NCBI RefSeq assembly: GCF_045037415.1
Contig: NZ_CP173438.1
Reading direction: 5' to 3' (one strand)
From: Escherichia coli
Lineage (GTDB): Bacteria; Pseudomonadota; Gammaproteobacteria; Enterobacterales; Enterobacteriaceae
Length of the DNA stretch: 64,000 nucleotides
The first letter of the stretch is position 1, and every line of letters begins with the position of its first letter. Shown here piece by piece: positions 45,101-48,100 of this stretch. Made by a program: the position numbers.

Positions 45101-48100
45101 CTGTTATATGGCGAATGACAGCAAAGGCCATTTTGTTACGGCGAAAGAAGCAGCGAAGCACAACCGCCAGGACGTTTTGTGCTGTGTGTCCTGTGGATGC
45201 CCGTTAACACTTCAGCGGGGCAATGACGGACAACCACCGTGGTTTGAACATGACCAGATGACTGTCGCTGAGAAAATCCTGCTGCGATGCACCTGGCTTG
45301 ACCCGGCAGAGAAAGAGGCCCGTCGTTTGCATCTGCAGGGTATGACGGTTCCGGATTATACGGTGAAGGTGAGAAAGTGGTTTTGTGTGATGTGTGACGA
45401 AGATTATGAAGGAGAAAAGTGCTGCCCGAGTTGTGGTACCGGGGTATACAGCAGGGAGGGGGGGCTGCAGGAAGGCAACTGGAAGGATAGGAACTGAGCG
45501 GTTCAGTCGCGGAAATCAGTTGTAGAGCTGTAATGATATCTCCGGGAGTGCTGCGTTGGTAGGGGCATCCCGGGATAGAGAAATTTTAGCACTTTGCCCT
45601 GAATGATTGTAGACGTCCCGGGTACTCGTACCGGTCTGAGTTATTACAGTTAGATATTCACTTTTTCTCCCGCATACTTCACATCTGTCAACGACGGATG
45701 AAAAGTGGTTCTTCCGCAACCTGGGTGGAAGAAAATGGATGAAACTTTCTGGCGAACAAGGATCTAAGCTGTTTTAAGTTATGGGCAACGCAATGCACTC
45801 TCTTAAGACACTTCTACAGTTACCTTGCGGATGGCGATGCAGTCGACAAATTATTAGCTCTGACGGTATAACCCTCCATCTCCACGGAAAACGCAAAACA
45901 GCACAATGTCCTGAATGCTTTAAGCGTAGCGACTCTGTTCATAGTTGTCGTCGGCGCCGGATACAGCATCTACCCTGCTCAGGGCAGACGCTATGGCTTG
46001 TATTTTCCGTCCGCCACTGGTACTGCCGTAACCCGGCTTGTTAACGTAAAATTTTTGCCGAGTCGCTTGCTCCCTTCGCCGGTTCACACCAGCAGTCTTC
46101 ACAGGCGTTACAAAATTTACAACGTCAACTGGGATTAATAGCTGGAGGTGAGGCTGGAAAACGGGCTGCAACGGCAGCGGGTCTCCGTTGCAGTGCTGAT
46201 ACTCTTCTTCGCAGGGTTATCAATACCCCGGAGACGAAACAGTCAGGCGCGCCTCATGTCGGTATTGATGAGTGGGCGTGGCATCGGGGCCACTGCTGCG
46301 GTATGTTAATAGTCAATCTTGATACTCACCGTCCCCTCGTCCTGCTTCCCGGCCGTGATCAGCGTACGCTGGCGACCTGGTTCAGAAAATATCCGGAAAT
46401 ACAGGTTGTCTCGCGTGATCGCAGTGGAGTCTATGCGACAGCAGCACGTGAAGGTGCACCTCAGGCCAGACAGGTGGCCGATCGATGGCACCTGCTAAAA
46501 AGTATTGGTGATGAGCCTGAACGAATGATGTACAGACATATGCCTCTGATACGTCTTGTTGTCAGAGAGTTATCACTGAAGAAATCACCTGAGCCAGAAA
46601 TATCTGTGCCTGTAGCATCGCTCCGTCGTCCGGAACGCCTTAAACAGCAAACCCGCAAAAAACGGCATCAGCATTGGACAGAGGTTATGGCCCTGCATAA
46701 CAAGGGATGTAGTTTCAGGGAAATATCCCGTATTACAGGCCTGTCGCGAGTGACAGTCAGTCGCTGGGTGCGTTCAGGAACATTCCCTGAAATGTCAACC
46801 CGGCCTCCAAAGCGAGGGCTTCTGGACCCATGGAGGGAGTGGTTAAAAGAGCAACGAGAAAGTGGTAATTATAATGCCAGCCGGATATGGCGGGAAATGG
46901 TGGCCCAGGGGGGGACAGGCAGTGAAACCATCGTCAGGGATACTGTTGCCAAATGGCGTAAAGGCTGGAACCCACCGGTTACTACTGCCGCAAGACTTCC
47001 TTCAGTGTCCCGGGTAAGCCGCTGGTTGATGCCCTGGAGAATAATCAGGGGCGAAGAAAATTATGCATCCCGATTTATTAGTCTGATGTGTGAAAAAGAA
47101 CCGGAGTTGAAAATAGCACAGCAACTGGTACTCGAGTTCTACCGTATTCTGAAAACCTAAAATAAATCACAGCTAAGCAGCTGGTTCACTCGAGTTCACG
47201 AAAGCGGCTCAGCAGAACTTCGGTGCGTAGCTGCGGGGATGGAAGCTGATGCTGCGGCTATATGTGAGGCAATCAGCAGTCGCTGGAGTAATGGTGTTGT
47301 CGAAGGTCATGTAAATCGCCTGAAGGTGCTGATACGCCAGATGTATGGTCGAGCCGGATTTGAACTACTTAGGCGGAGGGTAATGAGTCCACTGGCATGA
47401 AAATCTTCACCTAGGTTGCGGAAGAGCCACTTTTGCACTGTTCGTGACAGTATGGCCTTTATGTACTCACTTTGTTACCGGTAGCTGAATCATCACTACC
47501 GTGCTGCAAATGGTGGTGAACAGCATCAATTGTGGAATGAATGTTGCCGAAGCGACCAATGCGCCTCGTTTCCACCATCAGTGGTTGCCGGACTAGCTGC
47601 GTGTTGAAAAGGGTTTAGTCCGGATACGCTCAAGCTGCTGGAAGCAAAAGGTCAGAAAGTGGCGCTGAATGAGGCGATGGGCAGCACGCAAAGCATTATG
47701 GTTGGGTCGGATGGTGAGTTGTACGGCGCATCCGACTCGCGCTTGGTGGATGATTTAACGGCGGGGTATTAATTGACATCCCCCGGCGCAGTGTGCCGGG
47801 GGATAATGGTTTTATGCGGTCAATAATCGTCCGGGATTATCGATACAGAGTTTTTTGAGGATCGTTTTATCGACGCCGCGCTCCGCCAGATAGGCCAGAA
47901 AAACATCTGGAACAAATCCCCAGCCATTACCGCCATTTTTAGCCCACATTTGTTTAAGGAAGACATCGTGGCTGAGAACAAGCTGATCGGCGTATCCCAA
48001 CTCAATGAGATGAGCGACGGCATCGGCAGTCTCCTGCACCCCTGGCGCTATTCCCTCTTTCGGGAAGGTAATGTCTAGGCCAATCATGTCGAATTCCAGC

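Follow-up and report, generated by a model that had tools for sequence, protein, structure and literature searches.

We analyzed a 64,000-nucleotide (nt) stretch of the Escherichia coli chromosome (contig NZ_CP173438.1; hereafter the window) and found that, within a CP4-44-type island by cobUST, the 3′ end of a gamma-glutamyltranspeptidase gene (ggt′) lies close to a dead transposase gene of the ISL3 family of insertion sequences (IS). This place is most likely a fossil junction: a 4.5-kb block from an Escherichia-like genome, where an operon was convergent to ggt, would have been broken within ggt, where a mobile unit has its outer end. The original prediction, made from the sequence alone, had described a frameshifted ISL3 transposase gene directly followed by a ggt fragment that retained its terminator, and had attributed the arrangement to capture or truncation by ISL3 activity.

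Gene order beside the ggt remnant matches the ggt locus of Citrobacter and Salmonella

We found that the ggt remnant, the hairpin that follows it and the neighboring operon form one colinear block. The features concerned are:

47474–47772, plus strand: ggt 3′ remnant (ggt′), corresponding to K-12 GGT residues 478–580, with the stop codon TAA at 47770–47772
47778–47804, no strand: GC-rich hairpin, within the 39 nt that separate the convergent ggt′ and phosphotriesterase gene
47812–48846, minus strand: intact phosphotriesterase-family gene (PTE), 344 amino acids, last in the operon
48849–49814, minus strand: DMT transporter gene
49868–50626, minus strand: GATase1-like amidotransferase gene
50640–51854, minus strand: DeoR-HTH/PfkB kinase gene
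52050–52388, minus strand: IS66-family transposase fragment, about 100 nt past the right edge of the block, annotated by the Prokaryotic Genome Annotation Pipeline (PGAP; 26451–26789 of locus L001)

In a scan with one genome per bacterial species, the closest relatives of the PTE protein outside E. coli were found in Citrobacter spp. and Salmonella enterica subsp. diarizonae (86–88% amino acid identity). A single blastn alignment of 47479–51949 (4.47 kb) is colinear with the four loci of these genera (L006–L009) at about 76% nt identity, and in all four an intact ggt lies 45–50 nt downstream of the PTE orthologue and is convergent with it. In the Citrobacter locus L008, the order of open reading frames (ORFs) fits ugpBAECQ, yhhA and ggt, followed by PTE, DMT, GATase and PfkB in convergent orientation; ugp and yhhA were named by ORF size and order as compared to K-12, not by a search. 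The four operon ORFs in the window are intact and their lengths are within one codon of the Citrobacter ORFs. Gene order, orientation, hairpin position and gene lengths are thereby alike across the 4.47 kb; however, the Citrobacter and Salmonella loci have only ~76% nt identity to the block, their ggt is intact, and they occupy the native ggt site, whereas the block in the window is found in an island beside cobU. This colinearity argues that ggt′ is best read as the torn left edge of the 4.47-kb block, a leftover of the donor gene order and not a separately captured fragment.

The identity values separate this donor from the genera that display the gene order today. The remnant has 92.5% identity with E. 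coli ggt but only 81–83% with Citrobacter and Salmonella ggt, and E. coli ggt is itself 83–84.5% identical to the latter; therefore, the source was Escherichia-like. Direct transfer of the block from Citrobacter or Salmonella would fit the fact that these are the only genera found with both the ggt/PTE order and the closest PTE orthologues, but the low identity of ggt′ to their alleles as compared to E. coli, together with ~76% nt identity over the block, makes it the least credible of the explanations we weighed, and we regard it as highly improbable.

The proposed donor would have been an Escherichia-like genome with a PTE-DMT-GATase-PfkB operon convergent to ggt, as is still the case in Citrobacter and Salmonella. 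The left breakpoint would fall within ggt, where a 1,764-bp unit composed of an ISEc38 core with 21-nt IS100-type tips has its outer end, and the right breakpoint would lie about 95 nt upstream of the kinase gene, with an IS66 remnant about 100 nt further. The anatomy, colinearity, divergence values, shared and private lesions, and distribution are directly observed; who the donor was, in what order things happened and which transposase caused the break are inferred.

The ggt remnant is decayed and lies outside sampled E. coli ggt diversity

When we searched 5,426 complete E. coli genomes, blastn detected homology to chromosomal ggt at 47479–47772 with 91–92.6% identity, and a manual alignment that bridges a 12-nt deletion between CGGTAGC repeats carried the homology out to 47474. 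As compared to K-12 ggt (b3447), the remnant has 92.2–92.5% nt identity (E about 1e-115) over residues 478–580 and its stop codon is at the equal position; in contrast, it lacks 82% of the gene, has two stops and two deletions, and continues into unrelated downstream sequence. The Pfam profile G_glu_transpept (PF01019) is matched with E = 8.2e-22, at profile positions 420–509 of 512 only. The fragment is a true relative of ggt and not of an unrelated gamma-glutamyltransferase paralog. Thus the predicted ggt 3′ piece is real and ends at TAA 47770–47772, but it spans about 100 codons (47474–47772) and not ~120. Nor does it begin at 47401, right after the transposase gene, as had been proposed: 47401–47449 is the right end of the element and 47450–47473 is unmatched.

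The lesions in the remnant are an in-frame 12-nt deletion after 47485, a TGA at 47486–47488, a TAG at 47594–47596 (GAG in K-12) and a 1-nt deletion at 47607–47610 (A4 for A5). The TAG and the 1-nt deletion had been recognized in the original prediction, while the TGA and the 12-nt deletion had been overlooked. In two related copies, in E. coli O145:H28 RM13516 and in plasmid pARG01 of E. coli JL05 (pJL05), the 1-nt deletion is present and the TGA and TAG stops are absent. Decay of ggt′ may thus have been stepwise, with the common 1-nt deletion first and the lineage-specific TGA and TAG later. Thr391, the autoprocessing and catalytic nucleophile of E. coli GGT, falls in the part missing from the remnant, and the stub, with neither a start codon nor the catalytic N-terminal part, would never have been functional in the island. 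There are 22 substitutions with respect to K-12 ggt, 12 synonymous and 10 non-synonymous, and a large part of the divergence must therefore date from a time when selection still acted on the gene.

These data bear on the idea that part of the resident E. coli ggt, terminator included, was brought into the island by ISL3 (ISEc38) transposition, through copying or capture. In favor of it, the fragment can be nothing but ggt, its closest relative is E. coli ggt at 92.5%, and a mobile element has its outer end 24 nt away. However, the proposed alignment to K-12 ggt gave 92.5%, and ggt′ falls outside sampled E. coli ggt diversity: it is 7.5% diverged from every one of ~5,400 alleles, the best of which reaches 92.6%. 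The synonymous changes exceed the expectation for a neutrally decaying copy. Similarity stops at the stop codon, the hairpin and yrhB that lie downstream in K-12 are missing, and what follows downstream is the PTE operon, in the colinear arrangement seen in Citrobacter and Salmonella. There is also no target duplication, and the outermost tips of the element are of IS100 type. Resident-gene capture by ISL3 is therefore largely refuted, and we consider it very unlikely. We did confirm that ggt is retained elsewhere: the full 3′ 535 nt of chromosomal ggt is present at another place in 5,420 of the 5,426 genomes, and in the source strain, too, ggt occurs at a second place. We searched the 64-kb window for further pieces of ggt, such as a displaced 5′ part, and found none. 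What survives of the predicted capture or truncation is that ggt is truncated at a mobile element's outer end; the piece does not appear to derive from the resident ggt or to have been captured alone.

A hairpin at the conserved position follows the remnant

The predicted GC-rich hairpin is present at 47778–47804, with a 12-bp stem that includes 9 GC pairs. A 61-nt stretch containing it folds at –27.9 kcal/mol, with z = –3.9 on the plus strand and –4.3 on the minus strand relative to shuffled sequences. A generic terminator scan returned 3 sites where chance would give 2.5 and is by itself no evidence; we call the hairpin a putative terminator because of its folding energy and positional conservation. 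It is not the terminator of K-12 ggt, as had been assumed, since E. coli ggt is no longer similar beyond the stop codon, where K-12 has a different hairpin followed by yrhB. In Citrobacter and Salmonella, the ggt/PTE gap holds a hairpin at the equivalent position, with a CCCGG...CCGGG stem. The end of homology at the ggt stop codon and this positional match argue that the hairpin is most plausibly the native, terminator-like intergenic structure of the convergent ggt/PTE pair. Its survival may be owed to its position, 7 nt past the stop codon of an operon that is still intact. A scan of 44500–52500 against Rfam at E ≤ 0.1 gave zero matches to RNA families.

Weighing an origin within E. coli

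Several observations weigh against an Escherichia-like donor whose ggt was broken at the mobile unit. The 24 nt at 47450–47473, between the element and ggt′, match nothing. The donor genome was not found, and among 5.8 billion proteins there is no PTE orthologue at 91–99% identity outside the E. coli island copies. In the scan with one genome per species, the operon is absent from the representative of every other Escherichia species. For the hairpin, there is no clear U-tract on the minus strand, which is the operon strand, and on the plus strand there is only a TTTT starting 7 nt after the stem, so that a role as terminator is unproven. Finally, metagenome contig OOBN01004140.1 (L090), if genuine, would favor an origin internal to E. 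coli. The sole PTE match at 91% (P0007) was considered as a donor and rejected, as it is a truncated copy from the same island.

Contig L090 was the one match in a metagenome scan for intact ggt with the island hairpin behind it. In its last 90 nt, read in the orientation of the window, sequence from ugpQ-yhhA-ggt (98.4% identity to K-12) gives way to the island-type hairpin and the 3′ end of PTE. The switch of source occurs inside a 24-mer, GGTGGATGATTTAACGGCGGGGTA, that is common to ggt and ggt′, and the contig stops 66 nt past the ggt stop codon. When we searched the complete E. coli genomes for a ggt/hairpin junction of this type, we found it in 0 of 5,426, and the best matches stop at the ggt stop codon. 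L090 is probably a chimeric assembly, because the switch point is a shared 24-nt sequence, the contig ends 66 nt later and the junction occurs in no complete genome.

The contig matters for the possibility that the operon is ancestral at the E. coli ggt locus, that the island copy arose by intragenomic rearrangement, and that some E. coli still have ggt convergent on PTE at the native site. The joining of a K-12-like ggt to the island hairpin and PTE 3′ end in L090 is what this would predict, and the operon proteins are 80–95% identical to those of Citrobacter and Salmonella, which by a rough estimate is about orthologue level. In contrast, the junction is missing from all of the complete genomes, L090 bears the signature of a chimeric assembly, and a divergence of 7.5% is too large for an intraspecies duplicate. 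We consider this origin unlikely, though less so than capture of the resident gene, and favor an Escherichia-like donor outside the sampled E. coli ggt diversity.

The transposase gene is nonsense-mutated

The predicted ISL3-family transposase pseudogene is present, at exactly the following position:

45781–47400, plus strand: transposase pseudogene (ISEc38-like, ISL3 family), a single 540-codon frame with two nonsense codons

Pfam ISL3 domains are recognized both in the catalytic part (DDE_Tnp_ISL3, PF01610; E = 1.7e-29, 103.8 bits, cutoff 23) and at the N-terminus (Zn_ribbon_ISL3, PF14690; E = 5e-7, 30.4 bits, cutoff 25.5). As compared to intact ISEc38 copies on a plasmid (L004) and a chromosome (L005), the gene has 95.5% nt identity and 0 indels, and it differs from the plasmid copy at 33 amino acids. 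An intact frame, the mark of an active ISL3 element, is lacking: there are two in-frame TAA codons, each created by a single substitution, at 46042–46044 (codon 88, from TCA) and at 47158–47160 (codon 460, from CAA). Because the alignment to intact ISEc38 has no indels and only these two stop substitutions, the gene is nonsense-mutated rather than frameshifted, contrary to the original prediction. The codon-460 stop is common to the ~2%-diverged copies in RM13516 and pJL05, while the codon-88 stop is private to this lineage and absent from both. Decay of the transposase would then have run parallel to that of ggt′, with the common codon-460 stop preceding the lineage-specific codon-88 stop.

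In the transposase (539 amino acids), the match to the Pfam ISL3 DDE profile is split into two segments, with weak helix-turn-helix matches just after the first, at positions 293–338. This suggests that a DNA-binding module may be inserted within the catalytic domain of the ISEc38 transposase.

The mobile unit is an ISEc38 core within IS100-type tips

The element around the transposase gene, and the gap that separates it from ggt′, are composed as follows:

45686–45706, no strand: outer left tip of the 1,764-bp unit, TGTCAACGACGGATGAAAAGT; together with G45707 it matches the right-end tip of the IS100 copy in the window at 22/22 positions
45707–47428, plus strand: ISEc38-like core (ISL3 family), 1,722 bp, with tips GGTTCTTCCGCAAC... 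and ...GTTGCGGAAGAGCC; 95.5% identity to copies that PGAP names 'ISL3-like element ISEc38 family'
47429–47449, no strand: outer right tip; its reverse complement, TGTCACGAACAGTGCAAAAGT, together with G47428 matches the IS100 left-end tip at 20/22 positions
47450–47473, no strand: 24-nt gap between the element and recognizable ggt, with no match assigned

The transposase gene is surrounded by a 43-nt imperfect inverted repeat (45685–45727 and 47408–47450), in which the core tips are GGTTCTTCCGCAACCTGGGTG and its partner. We considered this repeat as the long ends of the element itself and dropped the idea when the outer 21–22 nt turned out to be IS100 tips. IS21-type terminal sequences, TGTCA...TGACA, are present and match the IS100 ends at the 22/22 and 20/22 positions given above. 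The element sequence nearest to the ggt side is the IS100/IS21-type 21-nt tip at 47429–47449, and not an ISL3 tip. The window copy is like ISEc38 in the identity over its whole transposase gene, in the 1,722-bp core with GGTTCTTCCGCAAC tips and in both ISL3 Pfam domains; it differs in that its transposase is dead, with two nonsense codons, and in that it has no target duplication.

Members of the ISL3 family normally leave an 8-bp target-site duplication. We looked for 5-bp or 8-bp target duplications around both 45707–47428 and 45686–47449 and found none; the flanking sequences are ACATC on the left and GTATG on the right. Since there is no duplication of any length next to ggt′, the junction is not a simple insertion. 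We see no sign that the ISL3 transposase made the ggt-side junction, and its proposed role is unproven: attribution to ISL3 activity is not borne out, given the missing target duplication, the dead transposase and the IS100/IS21-type tip that forms the last 21 nt on the ggt side.

The 1,764-bp unit (45686–47449) is the form taken by nearly every ISEc38-like copy in E. coli: 3,149 of 3,187 records have its left junction, and 2,783 of 2,786 have its right one. It occurs in at least six different contexts. Two insertions of the unit are bordered by 5-bp duplications, AGTAC in pUTME-13 and GTAAT inside the ISEc12 istA gene of pDEC9B-1. When the ISEc12 istA halves of L095 are joined across the 5-bp duplication, there is no clean open frame, the N-terminal part being already frameshifted. 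An IS100-type left tip also flanks ISEc38 in the plasmid copies L004, L091 and L095, and in L091 and L095 the right tip equals the first 21 nt of the IS100 left end (21/21). These tips suggest repeated insertion of ISEc38 at one and the same site in IS100 ends, and the resulting chimera may be moved by IS100 proteins.

The unit resembles IS100, a member of the IS21 family, in its outer tips, and its 5-bp duplications elsewhere match the length of the IS100 duplication CATTG. Unlike IS100, it keeps only 21 nt of each IS100 end and has no istA or istB; its interior consists of the ISEc38 core only. A tentative model, which we hold with less than even confidence, is that the 1,764-bp chimera spreads through IstA/IstB acting in trans and leaves 5-bp duplications, and that such an IS21-type event, or later recombination between two units, and not ISL3 transposition, disrupted ggt in the donor and linked the operon block with the island.

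In the chromosomal copy L005, the core is inverted and lies between nt 1–66 of the IS100 left end and the last 21–22 nt of the right end. The IS100-like copy of the window (37263–39129, 1,867 bp) has the 5-bp duplication CATTG and splits an IS21-family transposase pseudogene (fragments 37103–37260 and 39130–39258); its second gene, in the istB position, has 696 nt and is named only 'AAA family ATPase' by PGAP. In the literature on ISEc38, we found only listings from mobile-element finders and no account of its ends or length.

The junction is old, widespread and still eroding

The IS/ggt′/PTE junction is present in 2,529–2,588 of the 5,426 complete genomes, at 98–100% identity and with nested shared and private lesions, and parts of the operon are present in 2,724. 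The arrangement is old, conserved debris. Erosion by IS elements continues: in E. coli TW10690 (L003, locus 5146–7021), an IS66-family element takes the place of the ISEc38 unit, ggt′ is reduced to its last 49 codons and PTE is truncated. Plasmid pARG01 of E. coli JL05 (127 kb; L089, NZ_CP049937.1 109198–122938) carries the whole island segment, with an inovirus Gp2-family gene, zinc-ribbon genes, the dead ISEc38, ggt′, PTE and a truncated DMT gene, and thus a piece of the chromosomal island has been picked up by a plasmid at least once.

The order of the four-gene operon (PTE-family, DMT, GATase1-like, DeoR-HTH/PfkB) is also kept in Klebsiella, Budvicia, Providencia and Proteus, and the PTE, DMT and GATase genes are also found near one another in many Actinobacteria.

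The overall significance is small, as the feature is unremarkable and both pseudogenes had been annotated before. The ggt stub would serve as a record of gene order: about half of the searched complete E. coli genomes have the PTE/DMT/GATase/PfkB operon, and the stub traces it to an Escherichia-like chromosome where it stood beside ggt. What mobile-element finders report as ISEc38 in E. coli is mostly a dead, vertically inherited copy with IS100-type outer ends, and caution is needed when such matches are read as active mobile elements.

Annotation and setting of the window

The window is 100% identical to ST131-type strains such as SK1144 and runs from the his operon through the CP4-44-type island to cobUST, ldtA and tRNA-Asn. 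In SK1144, PGAP annotates 45781–47400 as 'ISL3 family transposase, internal stop' and 47489–47772 as 'gamma-glutamyltransferase; frameshifted; internal stop; incomplete; missing N-terminus'. Both pseudogenes are already known from PGAP annotation of thousands of RefSeq E. coli genomes and are ordinary genome debris. The island backbone (17000–46000 of the window) is like CP4-44 of K-12, with yeeW, cbtA, cbeA, yeeT, yeeS, an antirestriction gene and DUF932. The same interval holds additional cargo: dynamin-family, patatin-like and RdcB-family genes, a TonB-receptor/ABC iron-type transporter cluster, ISEc20 and the IS100 copy.

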